DNA of 11,413 bases from a virus (taxonomy: Duplodnaviria; Heunggongvirae; Uroviricota; Caudoviricetes), in IMG/VR virus record IMGVR_UViG_2568526681_000003. One strand, 5' to 3'. Position 1 is the stretch's first letter. The number at the start of each line of letters is the position of its first letter. The position numbers were made by a program, and so were the translations under genes. The notes under the pieces were generated by a model, which searched no databases, had not been told where the DNA came from, and was given only the letters and a program-made list of their open reading frames with translations. Positions 1 through 11,413 of the stretch are shown in pieces.

Positions 1-448
1 AGGCAGCACGCGCCGCCGCTTCGGTAGGAAATAAGCCAAGGTGACGGAGTACACCATCAACGCGTATGTAAGCCTCCCATTTGCTACAGCCCTTATTCCA
101 GCTATACCCCCTTGCCTTGCGTCGGTTCTGGTCGTTTTCCCGCTGCGTAACCAAGCGCAGATTGCATAGGCGGTTGTCGTCACGGATACCGTTGATGTGA
201 TCGATCTGCTTACCGTGAGGAATAGCGCCATGCGCAAGAATCCACGCCACGCGATGGGCTTTTAGCTGGTACTGCTTGCCATCAAGTCGCAGGGCAACTT
301 GACGATAGCCATCAGCTCGCCGGGTGGAGTCAGCATAGGAGCCAACCTTAACCCGGCGTCGGTTAGCTTTATGGTGCAGGCGACCTGTCACCGGGTCATA
401 CAGGAAAAGGGATCGCAACAGCTCAGGGGCGTAAGCATCATTAACCAT
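1..448 (-). CDS. HNH homing endonuclease with C-terminal AP2-like domain; partial, 3' end of gene lies beyond window start
   Basis: Own translation of minus strand from ATG at 448..446 stays open for 149 codons to the window edge: MVNDAYAPELL...HRVAWILAHGAIPHGKQIDHINGIRDDNRLCNLRLVTQRENDQN (His/Asn HNH motif) followed by GYSWNKGCSKWEAYIRVDGVLRHLGLFPTEAAARAA (AP2-like). GGAGG Shine-Dalgarno 9 nt upstream. Absent from the ORF track because it has no stop in the window. Confidence 0.8.
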   Translation of the reverse strand, partial: MVNDAYAPELLRSLFLYDPVTGRLHHKANRRRVKVGSYADSTRRADGYRQVALRLDGKQYQLKAHRVAWILAHGAIPHGKQIDHINGIRDDNRLCNLRLVTQRENDQNRRKARGYSWNKGCSKWEAYIRVDGVLRHLGLFPTEAAARAA

Positions 449-464
449 GACTCAGCCCCTCCAG

Positions 465-1460
465 CTATGCAGCTTGTCGGAAATTGATAACGCAGTCAGG
501 ACGACGCAGCCCAACGTTGAACAGGCGATATGAGTCCATCACCATCGTTATTTCGCGTTCATCATCCCACTGGCGATTGATGACGCTCTGCGCTTCGACC
601 GTCAACAGTACCGAGGAAGGTTTAAACAGCGTCGCCCTCGTCAGTGCTTCCTCTGCGGTAACGTCATAATCAGCGCCCAGTTCATGCCCGGTAATGGCTT
701 CCTGCGGGTAACTATTCAGCTCGATAACTCGCACCCCAGCGACATAGCCAACACGACGCCATGCGTAATCGTTGCCACTATCCCGGCTGTAACGGACGTT
801 CATCAGCTTCTTATGTTCCATCAGGATGCTGAACCAAGCCGGGTCGATAAGCAGTACCAGCTCCGCCACCGGAATATCTTTCTCAGTCAGGAATCGATTA
901 ACAGCAGCTTTGATAGCGTGAACCAGTTCGTTAGCCGCATCCTCTTCGCTTCCCGTTGTCAGGTCGAGCGAGACAACGTTATCCGTAAGCGGGTTAAACG
1001 TTGGTTGCAGTGTCGGCGGCGGTACGAAATCAGTCGCTTTGAGTAGCTGGATGGTGTGCGCTTCGTCGTAGAATTTAGCGTGAGCAGTACCGATATTGCG
1101 GCTCAGCTCGGCGCGAAAGGTGGGAGCTGTCCAGTCATCCTGATAGTCAATCGGGATGCGGATATAGCTCAGCGTATCCACAGAGATAACCAACTTGTCC
1201 GACTTAACGGCGGTAGGCTCCAGCGATTGCCCTGCGGTTCTGCCCTTCACCTCAAGATCACCACTCAGGCGATCAACACGATATTGGTTGCTAGCTTTCA
1301 GCGGCTTGTATGTGCTCAGCCCCTCGGCGAGAAACACGCTCTTTGCCTCAAGGCGGGTCTGAACGTCCCGGTCATACGCTTCAATGTGAATGTCGTTGTC
1401 AGCATCCACACCGCCCCAGTGCGGGCGGAATTGGTCAGGGGTATAAACATTGTCAGTCAT
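465..1460 (-). CDS. Phage major capsid protein, T7 gp10-like (HK97-fold family)
   Basis: 331-aa ORF with ATG start and GGGAG SD. C-terminal half aligns by eye with recalled T7 gp10: ELVHAIKAAVNRFLTEKDIPVAELVLLIDPAWFSIL vs EIIAALTKARAALTKNYVPAADRVFYCDPDSYSAIL, and VGLRRPDCVINF vs GGLRPEAAGAVVF. Homology is from memory, not a search. Confidence 0.65.
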   Translation of the reverse strand: MTDNVYTPDQFRPHWGGVDADNDIHIEAYDRDVQTRLEAKSVFLAEGLSTYKPLKASNQYRVDRLSGDLEVKGRTAGQSLEPTAVKSDKLVISVDTLSYIRIPIDYQDDWTAPTFRAELSRNIGTAHAKFYDEAHTIQLLKATDFVPPPTLQPTFNPLTDNVVSLDLTTGSEEDAANELVHAIKAAVNRFLTEKDIPVAELVLLIDPAWFSILMEHKKLMNVRYSRDSGNDYAWRRVGYVAGVRVIELNSYPQEAITGHELGADYDVTAEEALTRATLFKPSSVLLTVEAQSVINRQWDDEREITMVMDSYRLFNVGLRRPDCVINFRQAA

Positions 1461-1528
1461 AGAAATAGCTCCCGCGCCAGCGTTAGCCAGCGCGATTTAT
1501 GGAAAAGGGGAAAAGAGAATGTGATGAA

Positions 1529-1876
1529 TCAGGCAGCAGCTTTTTCAGCCGCGATCTCAAGAATCAGGCCGATAAGCGCGAAGGCAGGCCAATGGGGATT
1601 AAGCTCGTGCAGGTGCGCAACGCCCCCACCAAAAGCATCGCGCATATCAGCACCAGAGATGCCCGCGCGTTTGGCCGCCCGGCGCAGCAATCGCAGCTCG
1701 GAGCCGGGAACATACGCCGAGGGCATACGCACGCCGAAGCGTGAGGCGAGCCGCCGCCAGTGCGCTTCGTCAGCAAAGTCCTGCTTAAGCTGGCTGGCGT
1801 TGGCTTTCCAGTGTTCAATCCTCGCGCTACGGGCAGCCCTAGCCGCTGCCACGTTTTCAGGTGTCAGTAAGGTCAT
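1529..1876 (-). CDS. Hypothetical protein (115 aa) immediately upstream of capsid gene
   Basis: ATG-initiated ORF in operon orientation and position; no recognisable motif. Weak SD. Confidence 0.5.
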   Translation of the reverse strand: MTLLTPENVAAARAARSARIEHWKANASQLKQDFADEAHWRRLASRFGVRMPSAYVPGSELRLLRRAAKRAGISGADMRDAFGGGVAHLHELNPHWPAFALIGLILEIAAEKAAA

Positions 1877-1946
1877 TGTCAGATCTCAATGCAAAGTGGG
1901 TTTATGTGTGGTGTTTGAGAGGTAATTTCGCGTTTTACAGGTGCAG

Positions 1947-1975
1947 GTATACGAATGTACATCTGGCGATGTACA
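1947..1975. promoter_or_regulatory. Candidate operator: GTATAC palindrome plus two TGTACA palindromes 14 bp centre to centre, in the only sizeable intergenic gap of the operon
   Basis: Direct reading of GTATACgaATGTACATctggcgATGTACAa in the 160-bp gap between the scaffold-like gene and the capsid-proximal genes. No convincing sigma-70 -35/-10 pair found. Confidence 0.3.
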
Positions 1976-2035
1976 ACGCGATTCAGGCTCTAAAACGTAA
2001 GGTTAAGATGTGGGGAAGACAGGACAGGCGATTGC

Positions 2036-2731
2036 TTAACGGCCAGCGCGTTTGCCAGCGGAGCGCTGCGCAACCAGAGCGCGGTATTGATCGTCGTACT
2101 GGCGATGGCCGGGGCCATACCCTGATTGCTGCGCCCACTGCGAAAGCTGGTCATACGCCGCGATAAACTCCGCATGTGACATTCCAACAGATTGCGCGGC
2201 AGGCTGGCCGTATGGGTTTCCCTGTGCAGGAACGTACCCGGAAGCAGAACCAGCAGCCATACGTTCTTGCAGGTACTGAACCGCCCGCTGCATCTGCGCA
2301 GGGTCGCCAGACATAACCATACGTTCAAGGGTGGATTGCGTCCCAGCGTCGAGTGTGCCAGCGTACTGCAACATCGCGTCAACTGTCCCCTGCCCTAGCT
2401 GGCTTTCGACAGACTGGTGAAACTGCCCCATTAACCCTTGTAGCTCGGCGGTGTACTCAATAGCTGTTCCATCCATCAGGGGGATAGTATCGCCCACCTG
2501 CGCCCCGGCGCTGTCCGCGTTCTGGTCTTGCTGATTAGCAATGTTGCTATTATTCCATTGGCCGCCATCATTGCCGTTAACGGGCTGGGTACGGAGGAAA
2601 TCAGCATCAGAAGGCGCAGAGCTAAAGCGGGATGCGCCATTGTCAGCGCCAACAGGTGCAGCCATGTATGGCGATTGCTGCGACGCAGCATCAGCACCGG
2701 AAAGGTACGGATTAGCATTCTGGTCAGACAT
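2036..2731 (-). CDS. Low-complexity Q/A/G-rich acidic protein; putative capsid scaffolding protein
   Basis: 231-aa ORF, ATG with AGGAGA SD. N-terminal half is Q/N/A/G/D-rich and looks disordered; sits upstream of the capsid gene as scaffolds do in T7-like head modules. Function is inferred from composition and position only. Confidence 0.45.
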   Translation of the reverse strand: MSDQNANPYLSGADAASQQSPYMAAPVGADNGASRFSSAPSDADFLRTQPVNGNDGGQWNNSNIANQQDQNADSAGAQVGDTIPLMDGTAIEYTAELQGLMGQFHQSVESQLGQGTVDAMLQYAGTLDAGTQSTLERMVMSGDPAQMQRAVQYLQERMAAGSASGYVPAQGNPYGQPAAQSVGMSHAEFIAAYDQLSQWAQQSGYGPGHRQYDDQYRALVAQRSAGKRAGR

Positions 2732-2734
2732 AAA

Positions 2735-2974
2735 TTATTCTCCTGATAATGCTCTAAAGTCGTGTACCTGCGCTAACAACAGCATATGAACAGGCACACA
2801 ACGCTCCGGCAGTTTGCGTACACCGTGATACGCTTTCCCCATATCCTGACGGTCAACCTGATATGCACGGGCGAGGTCTGCCTGACTCACCTCAAGCGAT
2901 TCAGAAATCAGCTTTAATTGTGCAGCCCAGTCTGTATTCTTGCGTGGCGGCAGCAATACGATAGTTTTGCTCAT
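2735..2974 (-). CDS. Small protein (79 aa), possible helix-turn-helix DNA-binding protein
   Basis: ATG with GAGGA SD; stop 3 nt before next gene start. Segment LEVSQADLARAYQVDRQDM resembles an HTH, weakly. Confidence 0.45.
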   Translation of the reverse strand: MSKTIVLLPPRKNTDWAAQLKLISESLEVSQADLARAYQVDRQDMGKAYHGVRKLPERCVPVHMLLLAQVHDFRALSGE

Positions 2975-2986
2975 GGTAATTCCTCG

Positions 2987-3226
2987 TTAAAGTAATCCAC
3001 GTTTACGAAGCCAACGACGCTCACCAACGGAGCCGCGCGGGCGTTGTTTCGGATTCTGGTTAAGCGTTTGACCGGGGTCAGTTTGCCCATCCCCGGTCAG
3101 GTTCTGCGTTAGCACACCCCAGCCCCTTGACTCAATCGGCGCGTATCCCTCGCGCTGTTCGTCTAGGTTCGCGTATAGATCGGGATTCACTGCGGGATGC
3201 AAGAGTTCGTTATTCTCTGTCATCAC
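2987..3226 (-). CDS. Hypothetical small protein (78-79 aa), basic C-terminus
   Basis: Start is either GTG at 3226 (GTGA overlap with upstream stop) or ATG at 3223 (1-nt overlap). Either way it is translationally coupled to the upstream gene. Confidence 0.5.
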   Translation of the reverse strand: MMTENNELLHPAVNPDLYANLDEQREGYAPIESRGWGVLTQNLTGDGQTDPGQTLNQNPKQRPRGSVGERRWLRKRGLL

Positions 3227-3783
3227 TTAGTCCCGTATCGCGTGTTAACATCTTCCAGAATATCGGGATAGCCCCAGCGATTACGCATCAGGCGCAGCGC
3301 TTGAGCAGCCGCTTCGACAGGAATTTCAAGCCTTCCGGCGATCTCAGCAACAGGCCAGCCAAAGCGCTCCAGCTTGTGCGCCTCGTCAAGATCAGCGCTA
3401 GACAGGCGGCGCATCGTCTGCGGCTTCTCAGGCTTCGCTTTAACAGCTTTCGGCATCGGGTGGGTGTGGGCGTTGCTAAAGCGGGAATGTGCGATAGCCA
3501 GCACAGTCTCAGGGCGAATCAGCATATCGCGGGCAATCATAAATTCTGTATCACGGTGCAGCTTGCCGGGCTTATAGCGGCTGCGGATGGCGTTGTATTC
3601 AGCCAGAGTAATATCAGCATCGTCTTTCCACTGATCGGCCAAGTCATCGACATAGACGCCACGGATTACAGCATCAATATCGGTCATAGCATGACCAGTC
3701 TCCGCTACAATCTCTTCGTTGTTCTTGAAGTGTTTATGAGCCAGCGCGTTAATGTGCTGGATATCGGTAATGCTCAAAGTCAT
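3223..3783 (-). CDS. Putative DNA-binding protein with C-terminal sigma-70 region 4 / LuxR-like HTH
   Basis: 186-aa ORF; C-terminal LDEAHKLERFGWPVAEIAGRLEIPVEAAAQALRLMRNR fits the sigma-70 r4 / LuxR HTH pattern. Start ATG overlaps the upstream stop (ATGA). Could be a late-gene regulator or a small-terminase-like DNA-binding subunit; not resolvable here. Confidence 0.55.
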   Translation of the reverse strand: MTLSITDIQHINALAHKHFKNNEEIVAETGHAMTDIDAVIRGVYVDDLADQWKDDADITLAEYNAIRSRYKPGKLHRDTEFMIARDMLIRPETVLAIAHSRFSNAHTHPMPKAVKAKPEKPQTMRRLSSADLDEAHKLERFGWPVAEIAGRLEIPVEAAAQALRLMRNRWGYPDILEDVNTRYGTK

Positions 3784-3956
3784 ACATTAAACTCCGAATC
3801 AAAATTGATCTGGTCAGTAACCAGCGAATGAATCAGCGCAAGGCTGGATGCGGTATGTGTGCCCGACTTGCGGGCGTTGTCGTACATGAAGCGGGCTACA
3901 CGTTGATATTTCTCCGGCAACGTGGCGAACCATTGCCGGAATTGTTCAGGGGTCAT
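3780..3956 (-). CDS. Small ORF (58 aa), not in supplied ORF track
   Basis: Own translation: MTPEQFRQWFATLPEKYQRVARFMYDNARKSGTHTASSLALIHSLVTDQINFDSEFNV. Its ATG overlaps the upstream stop (ATGA at 3953-3956) and its TGA overlaps the downstream ATG (ATGA at 3780-3783), filling an otherwise unexplained 170-bp gap. Confidence 0.45.
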   Translation of the reverse strand: MTPEQFRQWFATLPEKYQRVARFMYDNARKSGTHTASSLALIHSLVTDQINFDSEFNV

Positions 3957-4162
3957 TGGTCGTCATCCTCCGGGAACACGTTGTTAAAGGTTGTATCAGG
4001 CGAGTCGGCGGCGTTCTGCTTGAGGAAGTTCACGCAGGATGACAACTCAGCAGCAGCCATGCGTGACTCTCCCGCCTCGTCCTCCTTAAGCCTGCGCGTC
4101 AACGCCCCCAGCAGCAGGGTTTTTAGTTCCCATGCTCCGGCTTCAAATTCAGATTTCGTCAT
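3953..4162 (-). CDS. Hypothetical small acidic protein (69 aa)
   Basis: ATG at 4162 overlaps stop of upstream gene (ATGA at 4159-4162); operon context. Confidence 0.5.
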   Translation of the reverse strand: MTKSEFEAGAWELKTLLLGALTRRLKEDEAGESRMAAAELSSCVNFLKQNAADSPDTTFNNVFPEDDDQ

Positions 4163-4596
4163 TGGTGGTTATCTCCAACTGGTAACAGGCCAAGCGCACG
4201 GATGTGCTGTATCACTTCTTGATGCACAGGCTTCGGCAGAAATAAACGGCGGGCAATGGCGGCGTAAACTTCATCAGGCGTCTTGCGCACTGGATGCACT
4301 CGGCCATTAAAAACCCGATCAGACAGGCGGACAGCTTTCCAGCAACGTGAGCCATCCGGCCTTTTCATGCGGTTCAGCACAGCGGCCAGACACTCCCACG
4401 GCTCGCAGTTATTGAGCAGGCAATACCGCTGTAGCGGCGTACCAGCTTGGCGCAAGATGGCCGCACGATTAAGAGTCTGGCGGTGGCGCTCAGCTAACCC
4501 ATCGAAGGAATATCCGTTCAGGGCGAAGGCAAGTTGTGCGGTGACGAGCGCATCCGCACGCGCAGCACGACGCTGCGCATGTTCGGTAACAGGCAT
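4159..4596 (-). CDS. Hypothetical protein (145 aa)
   Basis: ATG with GGAG SD 8 nt upstream, 38 bp downstream of helicase stop; no recognisable motifs. Confidence 0.6.
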   Translation of the reverse strand: MPVTEHAQRRAARADALVTAQLAFALNGYSFDGLAERHRQTLNRAAILRQAGTPLQRYCLLNNCEPWECLAAVLNRMKRPDGSRCWKAVRLSDRVFNGRVHPVRKTPDEVYAAIARRLFLPKPVHQEVIQHIRALGLLPVGDNHQ

Positions 4597-4634
4597 ATGG
4601 ATTAACTCCAGAGAATGAGGGGGAGCCTTTCGAC

Positions 4635-6479
4635 TCAGAGGTATTTAGCGATGTACTGCCAGTTGCAGTTTTCAGGGCGGTAGAAGTAAGCAAGCTCATC
4701 AGGCGCAGCATCCAGCGCCAGCGATGACCACAGCAGAAACGCGCGGGCAGGTTGACCATCGCGCCCGGCTCGTCCAATCATCTGAATGAGGTCAGGCAGG
4801 TCATCAGGAATATATGTAACGATGACGTTGCGAATGTCTGGCACATCAGCCCCCAGCCCAAAGGCTTTGGTAGCAATCAGAATCGCGCCCGGCGTAGTGG
4901 CAAACCACTCAGCGTTTGCGTGACGTTCCTCGTTACTCAGGTGCATCGTCTTCGAGTGATATGGCCGCGCCCGGTCGCCTAAGAGTTTCAGGTACGCCCG
5001 CAACGTCTTAAGGTCATTGACGAGAATGAGCGTCTTCTCTTCTTTCGACAGAGCCTCGACCAGACCAATAGCCGCACGGTATCGCTGGCGGCACTGCCTG
5101 ACCGGAATCAACTGGATATTCTCGCGAGCAACATCAGCACGGAATGTGACGTAGTCGCCACGGCATCCCAGCGCCTCCATTAAACCGCGCTCATTTTCAC
5201 GTAGTAGAGTAGCCGTAAACACGCAGCGTTGAGCCGAGGGAAAAGCATTCTGTAGTGTGTGCTGCATTGCGTCGTAAGCTGGGCGGAAATCCCAGTCTTT
5301 GACCGTGTGTGCCTCATCGATAATAAAACGATCAACGCCATAAGCCATCAGCGCCGCGAGAACCTGACTCGACGGAACCAGATGTTCAGGCGAAACAACA
5401 GCAACCCGGAACGCCCCGGCTGCTAGTCCCGCCAGTTGTTGTGCGTTGCGGTGCCTCGGTAGCTTATCGCCAAAGGCCACAGCGTGAATGCCAGCCTCCC
5501 GCAACTGGCGGAGAATCTGACGCTTAAGGGTATTAGTAGGAACCACGATTACAGACAGGCCAATGCCAGCGCGGGACTCATAAATCAATGGATAAGTGAA
5601 GGCGGCGCTTTTGCCATACCCGGTCGGCAGTACGGCAAGCACATCACTGCCACGGGAAAAGATCGCATCAGCAACAGACAACTGCCCCGGCCTCCACTCC
5701 AGCCCATCAGGTGGCAGCAGGCTAACGCGTGCGTTTCGGTCACAGCGAGCCAGCGGGCGGAACTCATACGGTGCAGTATTCAGTGCCGGCACAGACGGCG
5801 AAGCAGCCAAGCCGTTCGGGTCACAATGATGATTAGAACTATTAAATCTATCTTCGGTAGGCTTCGACTCTCCACACCACAATTGCCGAAACTCCCCTGA
5901 GTCTCCGTAGCGTTTGAAATCTGCGTTGCGCATAGCTTCCAGTTGGTTCATGCCCCGACTGATACGGCGCATGGTCTTCTCATCGCAAATCAGGAACTCG
6001 CGGCAGGCTTTGAGAAAAGCATTCTGTCCGGTTGTCGCTTCCGGCACGGCGTGCTCGCGCGGTTTCAATGCGGCATCGTCTACGCGAACACCGGGAAAAT
6101 CTGGCGGCAGCGGGTCAACATAACGAGCGGGCTTCTTATTCAACCATTGCTCAATCTCGGCGCGTCGGCAATGAATCGCGTCGCCGGGCTGGATGACTTG
6201 CCGCAACCCAGTGTCAGAGCGCTGTTTTTGTTTCTTCGGTTGAACACCGTGCAGCGTTCGCCACTCCCGCAAGGTCATCGCGGAGCCATCTGCATTGTAA
6301 TAAAACTCTTCGGTCTTTGTGTTGTATGCCGCCTTAACGGGTTTACGCTTTACAGGGCATATCTTGGAACGTCGAATAACAATCCCGTCAGCGATCATTT
6401 GCTGTACATCTGCGTTCGCAGTATTGAGCGGGTCAGCGTCGGCAGCTTGCACAAGCAGGCGGCGTAGGTTTGTTGGCAT
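4635..6479 (-). CDS. Superfamily-2 DNA helicase, RecQ-like core with ~280-aa N-terminal domain of unknown function
   Basis: 614-aa ORF, ATG with GGAGA SD. Motifs: Walker A LPTGYGKS, motif II IIDEAHTVKDWDFRPAY (compare RecQ DEAHCISQWGHDFRPEY as recalled), motif III FTAT, motif VI MIGRAGRDGQ. N-terminal 280 aa is Cys-containing with no match I recognise. Confidence 0.88.
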   Translation of the reverse strand: MPTNLRRLLVQAADADPLNTANADVQQMIADGIVIRRSKICPVKRKPVKAAYNTKTEEFYYNADGSAMTLREWRTLHGVQPKKQKQRSDTGLRQVIQPGDAIHCRRAEIEQWLNKKPARYVDPLPPDFPGVRVDDAALKPREHAVPEATTGQNAFLKACREFLICDEKTMRRISRGMNQLEAMRNADFKRYGDSGEFRQLWCGESKPTEDRFNSSNHHCDPNGLAASPSVPALNTAPYEFRPLARCDRNARVSLLPPDGLEWRPGQLSVADAIFSRGSDVLAVLPTGYGKSAAFTYPLIYESRAGIGLSVIVVPTNTLKRQILRQLREAGIHAVAFGDKLPRHRNAQQLAGLAAGAFRVAVVSPEHLVPSSQVLAALMAYGVDRFIIDEAHTVKDWDFRPAYDAMQHTLQNAFPSAQRCVFTATLLRENERGLMEALGCRGDYVTFRADVARENIQLIPVRQCRQRYRAAIGLVEALSKEEKTLILVNDLKTLRAYLKLLGDRARPYHSKTMHLSNEERHANAEWFATTPGAILIATKAFGLGADVPDIRNVIVTYIPDDLPDLIQMIGRAGRDGQPARAFLLWSSLALDAAPDELAYFYRPENCNWQYIAKYL

Positions 6480-6940
6480 GGTGAAATCTCCAGAAAATAG
6501 GGGTAGGTATTAGCTCAGGTTGGGGCGGTGGTACAGTTGCGGCAGACTCTCTGCCCTTATAGAGGTTTTCATGTCGGCAACAGTGTCAGTGTCTTTATCT
6601 GCCTTAATAGTCACTTTCAAAATCGGAGAGTTTGTCTCGCTTCGGGAGTTATTCTTTCTCCTTAGTAGATACTTTCATTAGGTCAATTTTTAACCACCTC
6701 CTCGCTAAGCCTTACTGAGCCTGGGCTGGCAATACTTAACAACGCGATTTTTGTCGGTCAAAAGCGGGAAAGTAATGCTCTATATCTCCTTATTAGTAGC
6801 CTTTAAAATTAAAAATATAAGTTACTGATATCAATAGATAATTATGAAAGTGACTATAGTGATAAGTATCGCTAGATACGCAGAGCGAGCGCGGCGCAGC
6901 CGAAACAAGCGAGCGCCGAACGGATGACGGATGGCAGACC

Positions 6941-6995
6941 GTAGGACTGACAGACGGCAGACAGTGAAGACAGTAGGACAGGTGACAGACAGTAG
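6941..6995. repeat. Cluster of GACAG pentamer repeats (six copies in 6949-6992) plus duplicated GTAGGAC and CAGTAG motifs; iteron-like
   Basis: Direct reading: GACAG at 6949, 6960, 6969, 6977, 6984, 6988; GTAGGAC at 6941 and 6974. Lies in a T-depleted purine-rich stretch of the plus strand (~6880-7350). Confidence 0.6.
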
Positions 6996-7674
6996 ACCGT
7001 GACGGCGTGCCATAGCTGGCAGTAGCACAGCAGGCAGTAAGACCGATGACCAACGGCTAAGACCTGAAAGGAAACGAACAAGGAAGATGATTGAATGCTA
7101 CAGAAATGAATTGAAGATGTTATGAAGAATACCGTACCGATATCAGGATAAGATTGAATACAGAAGTAATACCGATACAGAGTACCGTCCCACTACACAA
7201 CCCCGCCGCGTTGACCGCCCGGCAAGCACGGTTGCGTGGAGGGCCGAGCATCAGCAGCGGACGCAGGCCGATGAATGAGCCGAAGGCGAATGAAAGCGGA
7301 CTAGCGGACGCGAGAAGCGTAGCCAGTGGTGAGCGTGAAGCGATACACTGATTAGGAGATGGGGATGTAGGGGAAGAACCCTTTTTTGTACATGCATATA
7401 AAATGCAGCTTTAAAGCAAGCCAAGCAGCACCAGCCCGCGTCTCGTCTGGCTTTGTAGATGGACAACACAGCCTTTGATCCCTTCCCCTGCCCCATCCCT
7501 CGAATTGTTCAGTGATAAATCACATTCACAATCTGATCTTGATGCTCATCGTCTGGCACGGCTAAAGCCCCGCCACCTCTTCACATCAAGAGCCGCAAGT
7601 GATACGAAATACATTATAAATCATAGCATTAAGACATCACGCATAACATAACCCTCTGAAATAAATACAAAAGC

Positions 7675-7742
7675 TGTAGGTCATCCATCACCCACAGCCC
7701 AGTAACGGCCAGTCGTAGCACCTCGTTCGCTTGTAGGTCATC
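7675..7742. repeat. 11-bp exact direct repeat TGTAGGTCATC (7675-7685 and 7732-7742), second copy overlapping the recombinase stop codon
   Basis: Direct reading; both copies are followed by similar (C)ATC(A)CC extensions. Confidence 0.6.
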
Positions 7743-8316
7743 ATCCCTCGCCCTTGTTCCAGTGGCGTTTAACGGTGCTCACGCTAACGCCGAGACGCTT
7801 CGCTACCTTCGATTGAGACAGCCCCTCACTCCGCAGCTCCTGCACCTTTTGAGTGGTGTCGGTGGCTTCCTTGCGTCCCAGCTTAACGCCATTGGCTTTC
7901 GCCTTCTCCAGCCCGTCCAGCGTCCTCTCACGGATACGGTTTCGCTCGAACTCAGCAAAAGCTCCAAACATCTGGCGGATTAGCTTGCCCTCAGATGAAG
8001 TCAGATCACGCGCTGGCAGGTCAAGCGACACCACCTTCACGCCGCGTTCTAGCAGCATGTCGATGGTCTGCTGTACGTCGATGTTGTCACGCCCCAGCCT
8101 GTCCAGTTTCAGCACGACAAGCTGATCTCCCGCTTCCAGCTTGTGCTCAACCATCGCCCGAAACTTAGGGCGCTGCATAGCCTGAACACTACCGGAAATG
8201 TCCTCGCTGATTACCCGGCTTTCAGGCACCTTGTACCCGGCACGCTCAATAGCCAGCACCTGATTCTGCGTATCCTGCTCGCGTGTTGAAACGCGGCAGT
8301 AGATAAAAGTCCTCAT
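7741..8316 (-). CDS. Small serine recombinase (resolvase/invertase family) with C-terminal HTH
   Basis: 191-aa ORF, ATG with GAGGTG SD. N-terminus MRTFIYCRVSTREQ carries the catalytic Ser motif; VVLKLDRLGRD and a C-terminal HTH (LSQSKVAKRLGVSVSTVKRH) match the gamma-delta resolvase / Hin layout as recalled. Confidence 0.9.
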   Translation of the reverse strand: MRTFIYCRVSTREQDTQNQVLAIERAGYKVPESRVISEDISGSVQAMQRPKFRAMVEHKLEAGDQLVVLKLDRLGRDNIDVQQTIDMLLERGVKVVSLDLPARDLTSSEGKLIRQMFGAFAEFERNRIRERTLDGLEKAKANGVKLGRKEATDTTQKVQELRSEGLSQSKVAKRLGVSVSTVKRHWNKGEG

Positions 8317-8874
8317 GGTTCACCTCACCCGTCTGGTATCACAAAACGGTAGCATCATTTCATTGGTGGTATCATTAAGTCAAACCCTAAATTAATGACA
8401 CCAGATAGTAATCACTCAGACAGGTAGCAAGAATCGAACGATTGATGACACTAAAGCCAAAACAATAACGACAGCCAAGAGAAGCGCCAAGCATCAACGC
8501 AAAGTGCTTTAACAGTGGAGATTCAGGAGTGATTTAGCGTTTCAAGAGAAGAATAACCCTAACCCACAGCCTCACGGTCAGAACATGAAACAGGGTCATA
8601 AACGCCACAGAGGAAGGCAAATCGATATACAGCCCGCCCAGCCTTCGGCTGGGAGAGGCGCACGGGGGAAGTTGAAGCCTTAACCGTCGAGGGAGGGGCA
8701 ACCATAAACGTGCAATTTTTCAAGCCGGGGATTCAGTTATAGGCTAACGGTAGAATGCGGCTTGATACGGGGAGTGTTCACGCATCTGGTACAAATACCT
8801 AACTTCGTGAGCAACTGCCCCATATAGGCCACATCTGGCAAGTTTTGAGGTTATATAATTTACCATTCACGCTT

Positions 8875-9873
8875 TTACTTAATTGCAATCGGCGCGGATG
8901 GGATTGCTGTCAAAGAAAGAACCCGCATTTTGAAGTCTTCATACTGTTCCCCCTCACGCAATGAAAGTTCAGTTAAAGAATAGAAACGGTCGGTTGATGG
9001 CGATTCACTACGAGCTTTTGCCATATCCAACCGAGAAACATTAATCACAGTCCAGCACTCTGTATAACCCCTAGCTCGGGCTTTTTGGTGGCTCTTTTCA
9101 GCTTCGCCAATACGGTTATGGATATTTGAAACATCTGTCCCGCTTTTGACTTCAATAGCTACGACATTGCGGTAATTCTGATGAGCCATTTCTTCCCGAA
9201 TGATTATGTCTGGGTCCGCTGCAAACTCTATGAGAACCGGGCGACCTGTTGCACTGTTCACTTCAATAGCACTTTCTCGAACCTCTGCGGTAGCGTGCGC
9301 AACAATTTCTCGAATAATCTCAAACACTAACACAATTCCATTTGTGCCTCGTTGATTGTTAGCCCCGCCTCTTAATTGCGGCCCCACAGTGAGCAGAGTC
9401 AGGTCATCCAACAATTCACGGCTTACGCGTAACGGCCCAACTCCAGATAAAAGGGCAGAAGCAGCCCCGCAAAAAGCGGCGCATAATTCAGGTATTTTGG
9501 GTTTTGCCAGTTTACCAATAACACCCTTCACTTCCATTGATTTGAAACTACCAACACCAAACCCTTTATCTCTGCCATAAAACTCTTTCTGACTATATCC
9601 CATTAGCAAACGATAATAGCCCAATAGATAAGGGTTTTCTTCTAACACTGCGGGAACAGGGAATAAAAGTTCGGCCCGTAACCCGTATGTGGCTAAGGTT
9701 GCCAGATCCGCCTTGGGAACATATTCACCGAGTTGCGCATCAAGGGCGACAATATCCATATTACGCACGGTTTCTAACAACGCATTTTGAAGATAAACAC
9801 CGCGAAATCTTTTTAAAGCTAAAGCAAAATCGACCTGCTGTTTCGGTTCTGGGAAAGTGATTTTTACAGTCAT
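8875..9873 (-). CDS. Putative Type II restriction endonuclease (PD-ExK nuclease) cognate to the upstream methyltransferase
   Basis: 332-aa ORF whose ATG (9873-9871) overlaps the methyltransferase TGA (9872-9870). Candidate catalytic motif ADPD...(18 aa)...IEVK. Lower GC than the phage-like module. No family assignment possible without a search. Confidence 0.6.
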   Translation of the reverse strand: MTVKITFPEPKQQVDFALALKRFRGVYLQNALLETVRNMDIVALDAQLGEYVPKADLATLATYGLRAELLFPVPAVLEENPYLLGYYRLLMGYSQKEFYGRDKGFGVGSFKSMEVKGVIGKLAKPKIPELCAAFCGAASALLSGVGPLRVSRELLDDLTLLTVGPQLRGGANNQRGTNGIVLVFEIIREIVAHATAEVRESAIEVNSATGRPVLIEFAADPDIIIREEMAHQNYRNVVAIEVKSGTDVSNIHNRIGEAEKSHQKARARGYTECWTVINVSRLDMAKARSESPSTDRFYSLTELSLREGEQYEDFKMRVLSLTAIPSAPIAIK

Positions 9874-10772
9874 GCTGCCGCTATCCTTATCACATTAGTT
9901 TTATCACCCTGCAACCGATTAACCGCAATCTCAACATACTCAGGGTTTAACTCAATACCAACATATTGTCGATCTTCATCTTGGCAGACTACCCCCACGG
10001 TACCCGAGCCAAAGAAAGGGTCTAACACAAAATCACCCGGCTCAGTTGAAGCAAGGATACATGGCCGAATTAAATCAGGTGGGAATGTTGCAAAGTGCGC
10101 CCCTGAAAAGGGTTTCGTATTAACATTCCAAACAGTGCGACGGTTTCTTAGCCCACCATTGTCTCTTGGTTCTCTCACAGCCTGCCAATCATAAAAATAT
10201 TTCTCAGATTTTGTCAGCATGAATAAGAACTCATGGGAGCGAGTGGGACGGTCCTTAACGCTTTCAGGCATAGCATTTGGCTTGTTCCATACAATATCAC
10301 TCCGTAAATACCAACCATCGTTTTGTAGTGCAAAAGCAAGCCGCCAAGGGATACCAATAAGATCCTTCGGTTTCAATCCTTCTGGCGTATCTGGCCGAAC
10401 AGTCATAGCACGAGCTGGGTTCTTTTTATCTGGTGCTCTGTAACCGCGATTACCGCTTGTGTAACCATCCCCGATGTTAAGCCAAAGGGTGCCATCATCA
10501 CTTAAAACTCGTTTTACTTCGGCGAAAATGGTCACAAGGCGATTAATGAACTGGTGCATACTACTTTCTAAGCCAATCTGTTCATCAATCCCATAGTCAC
10601 GCAATCCCCAATAAGGTGGAGAAGTAACAACACAACGGACCGAACCACTAGGAAGCCTTCGCAATACTGTTAAAGCATCCCCCTCAAAAAGGGTAGGACC
10701 GTCCAACTCCAAAGGTTCGGCGCGATGAAGCCTCTCAACAGTTGGTGGTAAGCTACTCTTTTTCTGCGGCAT
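9870..10772 (-). CDS. Beta-class amino-DNA methyltransferase (N4-cytosine or N6-adenine; SPPY motif favours N4-cytosine)
   Basis: Motif IV VTSPPYW near the N-terminus and motif I DPFFGSGT near the C-terminus give the beta-class order. I place the start at ATG 10772 (AAGAGGA SD 6 nt upstream) rather than the track start at 10802, which is a TTG; this gives 300 aa. Confidence 0.88.
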   Translation of the reverse strand: MPQKKSSLPPTVERLHRAEPLELDGPTLFEGDALTVLRRLPSGSVRCVVTSPPYWGLRDYGIDEQIGLESSMHQFINRLVTIFAEVKRVLSDDGTLWLNIGDGYTSGNRGYRAPDKKNPARAMTVRPDTPEGLKPKDLIGIPWRLAFALQNDGWYLRSDIVWNKPNAMPESVKDRPTRSHEFLFMLTKSEKYFYDWQAVREPRDNGGLRNRRTVWNVNTKPFSGAHFATFPPDLIRPCILASTEPGDFVLDPFFGSGTVGVVCQDEDRQYVGIELNPEYVEIAVNRLQGDKTNVIRIAAA

Positions 10773-11250
10773 AACAATTCCTCTTACACATGATTCTAAC
10801 AAGCATTATGCCCGTAATCGCCGATACAATGTTGGCCGGTAGTGTAAACCGCGATGGGTGAGCCAACAACACACCCATAGAAAGTTTTCATTACCCAACA
10901 ACAGGTACAGCGGAGATATAAATTCAACCAATAGCTAGCCATAAGCGCCGTGTTGGGTATCCAAACAAACTGCGCCGTAGGCGTATCATCAGAAATGTCA
11001 CTCATTCGCTCTCTTATCGAGTACCGTTCGTTTATGGCACGGCGAACACCACGGTAGAGCCTGCCGCTTTCCCGGACAGGTTAGGCTTCCCAACATTTGC
11101 TCGTTTATCCACTGCGTGTCATCACGACAGGCGATTGTGGGACACCGCGCTAAGTGCGGAACAAATGAGTGTGATGGGATTGTTTAGAGACGGTGGCTAC
11201 GTCATAGCTTTCAAGTTGAGTCAGTACGTGTTTGACGCTTGGAACTACAC

Positions 11251-11301
11251 GCCGCTATGAGTTAACATCCCAATTACCACTATCAACCATAGCGGCTTTT
11301 T
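11251..11301 (+). terminator. Possible intrinsic terminator: 9-bp stem GCCGCTATG/CATAGCGGC with long loop, followed by TTTTT
   Basis: Direct reading; the 28-nt loop is long for a canonical terminator, so this is weak. Confidence 0.25.
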
Positions 11302-11386
11302 CAAGGGACATAACAGAGCATTTCTTACAGGCAAAAGAGACAGATTTAATCGTCTAAATAACTGTATTGTAAGGAATTTAGTGACT

Positions 11387-11413
11387 TGGTGCCGAAGGCC
11401 GGACTCGAACCGG
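11387..11413 (-). tRNA. leuX: 3' end of a tRNA-Leu gene (T-arm, acceptor 3' strand, CCA); remainder lies beyond the window
   Basis: Reverse complement of 11387-11413 is CCGGTTCGAGTCCGGCCTTCGGCACCA: T-stem CCGG/CCGG, T-loop TTCGAGT, acceptor strand and CCA. Matches my recollection of the E. coli leuX 3' end; the leuX identity is less certain than the tRNA call. Confidence 0.75.

Follow-up and report, generated by a model that had tools for sequence, protein, structure and literature searches.

A restriction-modification gene pair of the XmaI/XcyI/Cfr9I family, predicted to target CCCGGG, as cargo of a tRNA-Leu island in Escherichia coli

Two overlapping genes were examined in an 11,413-nucleotide stretch of DNA (IMG/VR virus record IMGVR_UViG_2568526681_000003; this whole stretch is referred to as the window), following a preliminary description of the pair as a Type II restriction-modification (R-M) system. 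The genes most probably constitute a functional Type IIP R-M operon of the XmaI/XcyI/Cfr9I family, with CCCGGG as its target and N4-methylcytosine (m4C) as the protecting modification, that was acquired horizontally as cargo of a genomic island; we place the probability of this reading at about 0.88. The window aligned over its full length with the chromosome of E. coli strain A16 (NZ_CP028758.1) at 99.92% identity, and the stretch from 8600 to 11413 was 100% identical to the same record. The coding sequence limits given by RefSeq for A16 coincide exactly with those of the two genes, which are named 'DNA-methyltransferase' and 'XcyI family restriction endonuclease' and are followed by tRNA-Leu. 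Because RefSeq already names identical proteins, the pair, although correctly read, is not new and is an ordinary, already annotated member of its family.

Anatomy of the gene pair

The first gene (9870..10772, minus strand) was identified from the list of open reading frames (ORFs) and a match to PF01555 as encoding a beta-class N6_N4 methyltransferase of 300 amino acids, predicted to be an N4-cytosine enzyme of the M.XmaI/M.XcyI type. The second (8875..9873, minus strand) was assigned from the ORF list and Pfam to a PD-(D/E)XK restriction endonuclease of the XcyI/XmaI/Cfr9I family with 332 amino acids. The sizes originally predicted from the ORFs agree with the RefSeq limits, and proteins of approximately 300 and 333 amino acids recur in the plasmid homologues. 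As had been proposed, the methyltransferase gene comes first and the genes overlap by ATGA: reading the sequence at 9870..9873 (minus strand) places the TGA stop of the methyltransferase over the ATG start of the nuclease. The same overlap is found in the copies on Klebsiella oxytoca and Xanthomonas citri plasmids and on an integrative and conjugative element (ICE) of Enterobacter, and in all it is kept in four lineages besides this one. An upstream TTG codon would extend the methyltransferase to 310 amino acids. The ATG at 10772 was instead taken as the start because the GAGGA Shine-Dalgarno sequence located 6 nt before it (10779..10783, minus strand) is conserved in all five aligned lineages.

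Other potential expression signals were read from the sequence and alignments. The motif TGTTAGAAT (10793..10801, minus strand) is a candidate extended -10 promoter of the operon, and the pattern TGnT(A/T)GAAT is retained in the alignment with the Enterobacter ICE copy, which has 78% DNA identity. For the nuclease, AAGGA (9884..9888, minus strand), which is 10 nt before the ATG and still inside the methyltransferase coding sequence near its 3' end, may serve as a weak Shine-Dalgarno sequence. No controller or helix-turn-helix gene was detected upstream of the pair in the ORF list, Pfam, PADLOC, or the RefSeq annotation, in agreement with the earlier statement that no controller protein is evident. 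The sole upstream ORF of more than 50 codons (10796..11005, minus strand) would encode a cysteine-rich peptide of 69 amino acids; it is unannotated in RefSeq, had no match in Pfam or PADLOC, and is probably not a real gene. A controller gene is likewise absent from the plasmid and ICE homologues.

Family membership of the nuclease and the methyltransferase

The nuclease matched Pfam RE_XcyI (PF09571) with an E-value of 4.2e-112 and 374.8 bits (cut-off 25), covering profile positions 4–305 of 305, and this was the only nuclease family matched by the product of the gene. PADLOC searches resulted in full-length matches of the nuclease to REase_II (681 bits) and of the methyltransferase to MTase_II (477 bits), which bears out the designation as a compact Type II pair. 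The family is large and tightly conserved, with more than 3800 relatives, of which each of the top 120 has at least 67% identity. The nuclease shares 84% identity over 325 amino acids with Q32XB3, annotated as 'probable R.XmaI' from a Xanthomonas plasmid (UniRef tag XANCG). This entry is probably XaxGORFAP of the X. axonopodis pv. glycines plasmid AG1, a correspondence drawn by name and host only; XaxGORFAP is listed together with XmaI, Cfr9I, XcyI, and Pac25I as a member of the XmaI family (Zheng & Roberts 2007, PMC1920265). Membership in the Cfr9I/XcyI/XmaI family, which the preliminary description had put forward, was thus supported.

The PD-ExK candidate noted previously was located in an alignment of 44 homologues, in which D220, P221, D222, E241, K243, and H252 are invariant. 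The predicted catalytic motif, a canonical PD-(D/E)XK signature, is composed of D220-P-D222 (9208-9216, minus strand) and E241-V-K243 (9145-9153, minus strand), and H252 sits nine residues past K243. No solved structure is available for the XcyI/XmaI/Cfr9I family, and searching the PDB with the nuclease at the sequence or profile level gave nothing meaningful; only a fold search with the predicted structure (predicted local distance difference test score 88) gave matches. The best of these was BsoBI, followed by NgoMIV, AgeI, BsaWI, Bse634I, SgrAI, and Cfr10I, and the predicted fold matches PD-(D/E)XK restriction enzymes. NgoMIV, AgeI, BsaWI, Bse634I, SgrAI, and Cfr10I leave 4-nt 5' overhangs on CCGG-containing sites, and the degenerate C^YCGRG sites of BsoBI include CCCGGG, which is cut at the same position. 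BsoBI also employs a histidine downstream of its ExK motif, and by analogy H252 may perhaps act in the same manner. BsoBI (PDB 1dc1) differs from the nuclease in having a degenerate specificity and only 13–14% sequence identity, with no match at the sequence level. For the CCGG family (NgoMIV, Cfr10I, Bse634I, SgrAI, AgeI, BsaWI, PspGI, and Ecl18kI), only about 130–150 residues align, and the R-(D/E)-R recognition motif known for that family is not evident past K243.

The methyltransferase matched PF01555 (N6_N4_Mtase) with an E-value of 1e-56. Its motif IV, SPPY (amino acids 51–54; 10611-10622, minus strand), is invariant in 34 homologues, as is the DPFFGSGT sequence that contains motif I, FGSG (amino acids 254–257; 10002-10013, minus strand). 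SPPY marks N4-cytosine enzymes, although this is no absolute rule. Motif IV precedes motif I, which is the beta-class order, and the proposed assignment to the N4-cytosine beta-class type is supported. The protein shares 99% identity with the GenBank entry 'M.XmaI' from Enterobacter sp. FY-07 and 86–87% with the plasmid homologues. The methyltransferases of the XmaI family all form m4C, at the second C (Cm4CCGGG) where the position is known, and this modification is documented for Cfr9I, XcyI, and SmaI (PMC1920265); a second paper likewise places M.Cfr9I and M.XcyI among the N4-cytosine enzymes (PMC8557920). Such a modification is in keeping with both SPPY and the motif order found here. From the 86–99% identity to the FY-07 and plasmid homologues we infer that the enzyme makes m4C at the second C of CCCGGG.

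With XmaI, XcyI, Cfr9I, and Pac25I (C^CCGGG; Cm4CCGGG), the pair has in common a full-length RE_XcyI nuclease, a beta-class SPPY methyltransferase that is encoded by the first of the two genes, a 4-bp ATGA overlap, proteins of about 300 and 332–334 amino acids, and the lack of a controller. The named plasmid members of this family have 84–87% protein identity to the pair. The pair represents a low-GC lineage and differs from the plasmid copies in that its GC content at third codon positions (GC3) is 38% compared to their 66–78%, its DNA is 70–72% identical, and it lies in a tRNA-Leu island with its own upstream region, whereas the plasmid copies follow a recombinase gene. The SmaI family (CCC^GGG) has the same target sequence, and its m4C methyltransferases are described as close relatives of the XmaI-family enzymes; it differs in having another nuclease family and another cut position (PMC1920265).

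Conservation and acquisition

Comparison of both genes with their plasmid homologues gave a proportion of nonsynonymous differences (pN) of about 0.10 and a proportion of synonymous differences (pS) of about 0.9. As synonymous sites are saturated and pN is low, both genes have been under long-term purifying selection. Identical R-M proteins were identified on about 285 contigs across Enterobacteriaceae. Searches with tblastn found relatives on 57 plasmids, of which 52 carry copies that are 80–90% identical and 31 are from Xanthomonas; no relative was found by tblastn in phage records. The relative on a K. oxytoca plasmid is annotated as 'restriction endonuclease Cfr9I', and the K. oxytoca and X. 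citri pairs are 84–87% identical to the pair described here. In Enterobacter, a 90%-identical nuclease is encoded at the edge of a conjugative element with type IV secretion genes. Using blastn, the only stretch common to this element and the window was 8883..10871, which is 78.5% identical over 1989 bp with flanks lacking homology and is considered the core mobile R-M unit.

The GC content of the pair is 45.5%, compared to 55% for the phage-like module (1-6479), which bears out the earlier remark that it looked lower; GC3 is 38% for the pair and 57–67% for neighboring genes. The separate acquisition suggested on this basis is supported beyond GC content, because related islands have other genes in the same place. 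Comparison by blastn with the islands of E2348/69, LD26-1, and CFSAN061761 defined a variable cargo slot at 8765..11174 that is filled here by the R-M pair. The left edge of the slot falls at 8730, 8765, or 8822 depending on the relative compared, the flanks are 89–97% identical, and the interior consists of other genes.

The tRNA said to adjoin the pair was also located: the start codon of the methyltransferase gene is 615 bp from the 3' end of a tRNA-Leu gene. According to the A16 annotation, the last 27 nt of tRNA-Leu(CAA) occupy 11387..11413 (minus strand) and are part of a 31-bp attachment (att) repeat. No tRNA was reported in the window by ARAGORN or Rfam because only these 27 nt lie within it; the whole gene, with anticodon CAA, is present in the A16 record. 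From its position beside ahr (yjgB), this tRNA-Leu gene is taken to be leuX.

Proposed mechanism

In the proposed mechanism, the methyltransferase would use S-adenosylmethionine to N4-methylate a cytosine of CCCGGG, leaving the host and the island protected. The nuclease, predicted to be a Mg2+-dependent PD-(D/E)XK enzyme with D222, E241, and K243 as catalytic residues and presumably a homodimer, would cut unmethylated C^CCGGG in incoming DNA. Both genes would be expressed as a single transcription unit without a controller protein, probably driven by the extended -10 element. The methyltransferase would be translated first, and synthesis of the nuclease would depend on that of the methyltransferase and be both later and lower. 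This coupling is probable because of the ATGA overlap and the presence of only a modest AAGGA 10 nt upstream of the nuclease start. Translational control of this kind is reported to have been studied for Cfr9I (Lubys et al. 1994).

Weighing the assignment

A number of observations weigh against a functional CCCGGG-specific m4C system expressed in this manner. The link to the characterized XcyI, Cfr9I, and XmaI prototypes runs via named homologues only. The Joint Genome Institute (JGI) names many close homologues of the methyltransferase 'adenine-specific', and the top NCBIfam and PDB sequence matches of the methyltransferase are to CcrM, yet far below the family cut-offs (102 bits vs 830). A consensus promoter scan that required a -35 element found no canonical -35/-10 promoter just upstream of the methyltransferase gene. 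A hairpin masking the ribosome-binding site of the nuclease was not indicated, as the 101-nt fold (folding free energy -21.5, z-score -0.82) was no better than those of shuffled sequences. Finally, the CCCGGG system XveII, discussed below, sets a reported precedent for a nuclease without function.

Among the alternatives, the one that fares best is that the pair is mainly an addiction (post-segregational killing) module that stabilizes the island rather than an anti-phage defense. Type II R-M systems can serve as addiction modules. The pair is inside a mobile island beside its attachment site, close copies are located on plasmids, a conjugative element, and SGI1-like islands, and neither the island nor the candidate helper phage considered below contains CCCGGG sites, all of which would fit such a role. 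On the other hand, the same slot in related islands has other small cargo genes, similar to the defense hotspots of satellites, and a role in addiction is compatible with defense, so that the two do not exclude each other. We regard addiction as the main role as unlikely, although it deserves serious consideration.

A second alternative is a methyltransferase that acts on its own beside an inactive nuclease, as is reported for XveII of Xanthomonas vesicatoria, a relative of the SmaI family that was reportedly described by Yu & Yang in 2007 as having a non-functional nuclease. When the alignment was checked for inactivating changes, the nuclease gene proved to be full length with all residues invariant in the 44 homologues kept. 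For the nuclease gene, a pN of 0.11 against a pS of about 0.9 indicates long-term constraint, and the identical protein recurs on 287 contigs. Loss of nuclease function is thus very unlikely, and the pair is probably an active system in vivo.

Still less probable is a specificity other than CCCGGG, such as a CYCGRG site like that of BsoBI and AvaI or another CCGG-containing site. In favor of this possibility, the top structural match is BsoBI and the CCCGGG target was deduced through relatives. The nuclease has only 13% identity to BsoBI, in contrast to the 84% identity to a listed XmaI-family member. XmaI, Cfr9I, and XcyI recognize CCCGGG, and the characterized family members, all of which recognize this sequence, cut at C^CCGGG (PMC1920265). 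Depletion of CCCGGG in the window (0 sites vs 5 expected) was considered as further evidence on specificity and was dropped as an instance of general palindrome avoidance. Six-base palindromes number 70 in the window compared to 158 expected, and CCWGG occurs once compared to about 25 expected. Islands without the R-M pair, as well as phage altidsur, are likewise free of CCCGGG. The absence of the site is uninformative because the depletion extends to all six-base palindromes and is shared by R-M-free islands and the phage.

That the methyltransferase is an N6-adenine enzyme, as the JGI labels and the CcrM matches might imply, is extremely improbable given that the CcrM matches are so far under the cut-off, motif IV is an invariant SPPY and not DPPY, the methyltransferases of the XmaI family are documented to produce m4C (PMC1920265, PMC8557920), and the predicted target contains no adenine.

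The surrounding island

The island is 14.8 kb long, with the 31-bp direct repeat of the leuX 3' end at both ends and an integrase gene at its far end. Its backbone encodes a RecQ/DpdF-like helicase, small genes, a scaffold-like protein, a major head protein, an HNH protein, an endonuclease VII-like protein, and a serine recombinase. Among 5426 complete E. coli genomes, the backbone was identified in 53–61, including that of enteropathogenic E. coli E2348/69, and only one backbone-carrying genome in this set has the R-M pair described here. The complete island including the R-M pair was also found in Enterobacter hormaechei and Cronobacter sakazakii.

Several further observations concern the slots and the genes next to them. 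Upstream of the R-M core, a stretch of about 300 bp (10872-11174) is seen only in islands that carry the R-M pair. A second variable slot is located at the opposite end of the island, between the integrase gene and the endonuclease VII-like gene; in A16 it encodes a YafO toxin and in Cronobacter an AbiTii protein, and hypothetical proteins occupy it elsewhere. The serine recombinase gene (7741-8316, minus strand), of the resolvase/invertase type, adjoins the R-M pair and belongs to the island backbone. Recombinase or resolvase genes are also neighbors of XcyI-family pairs on plasmids of K. oxytoca and Xanthomonas and on Vibrio SGI1-related elements; the recombinases, however, are only 29–40% identical. 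The helicase (4635-6479, minus strand; 614 amino acids) matched the PADLOC 'DpdF' model almost end to end with 916 bits, and RecQ-family models matched more weakly. No further Dpd genes were found near it, and the protein is probably a replication helicase of the island rather than a defense protein.

The island has the look of a small phage satellite that encodes a capsid and is inserted at leuX, with Bonnellvirus podophages as its apparent helpers. Its major head protein (465-1460) matched phrog_267 with an E-value of 2e-67 and is 57% identical to the capsid protein of Bonnellvirus phage altidsur, and the C-terminus of the scaffold-like protein (2036-2731) is 32% identical to the scaffold protein of the phage. 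The helicase, HNH, endonuclease VII-like, and integrase genes and the 31-bp att repeats complete this set, and no terminase, portal, or tail genes were found in the island. Literature searches aimed at a satellite of Bonnellvirus or T7-like phages found no description of one, or of this island. Two non-coding segments, 6816-7022 and 8686-8730, are 87–95% identical to parts of a non-coding stretch of Bonnellvirus podophages that follows the endolysin gene, the last of the late genes, and precedes the SAMase gene, the first of the early genes. Both segments keep the phage order and orientation; in the window they lie on either side of the serine recombinase gene and may mimic a packaging signal, a genome end, or a promoter. 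A match of phage Kc261 at two places was considered as a terminal repeat and ruled out, as two different island segments are involved.

Avoidance of palindromes is extreme in both the window and the phage. Phage altidsur has no GATC (153 expected), no CCWGG, and no CCCGGG (23 expected), and the chromosome adjacent to the island has 32 CCWGG sites in 13.8 kb. Because both the candidate helper and the island have no CCCGGG sites, an R-M payload of this specificity would be harmless to the helper. It can be proposed, tentatively and with considerable doubt, that the R-M pair is a swappable payload in the accessory slot of an apparently undescribed family of leuX satellites of virulent T7-like (Bonnellvirus) podophages, with capsid and scaffold proteins of their own. 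If this is true, the satellite would give its host a weapon against other invaders, and the phage that the satellite itself needs would be spared.

Implications

As an R-M system the pair is of minor interest, given that its family is well understood and its proteins already have names in RefSeq. A strain carrying it would restrict unmethylated DNA that contains CCCGGG, and XmaI, SmaI, and Cfr9I would be expected to leave the strain's DNA uncut. This expected resistance bears on cloning and on typing by pulsed-field gel electrophoresis. Of the pair and the island around it, the island is the more unusual. Because the location of the pair marks a slot in which small genes are swapped, it provides a handle on how a satellite-like podophage island gains defense or addiction modules.

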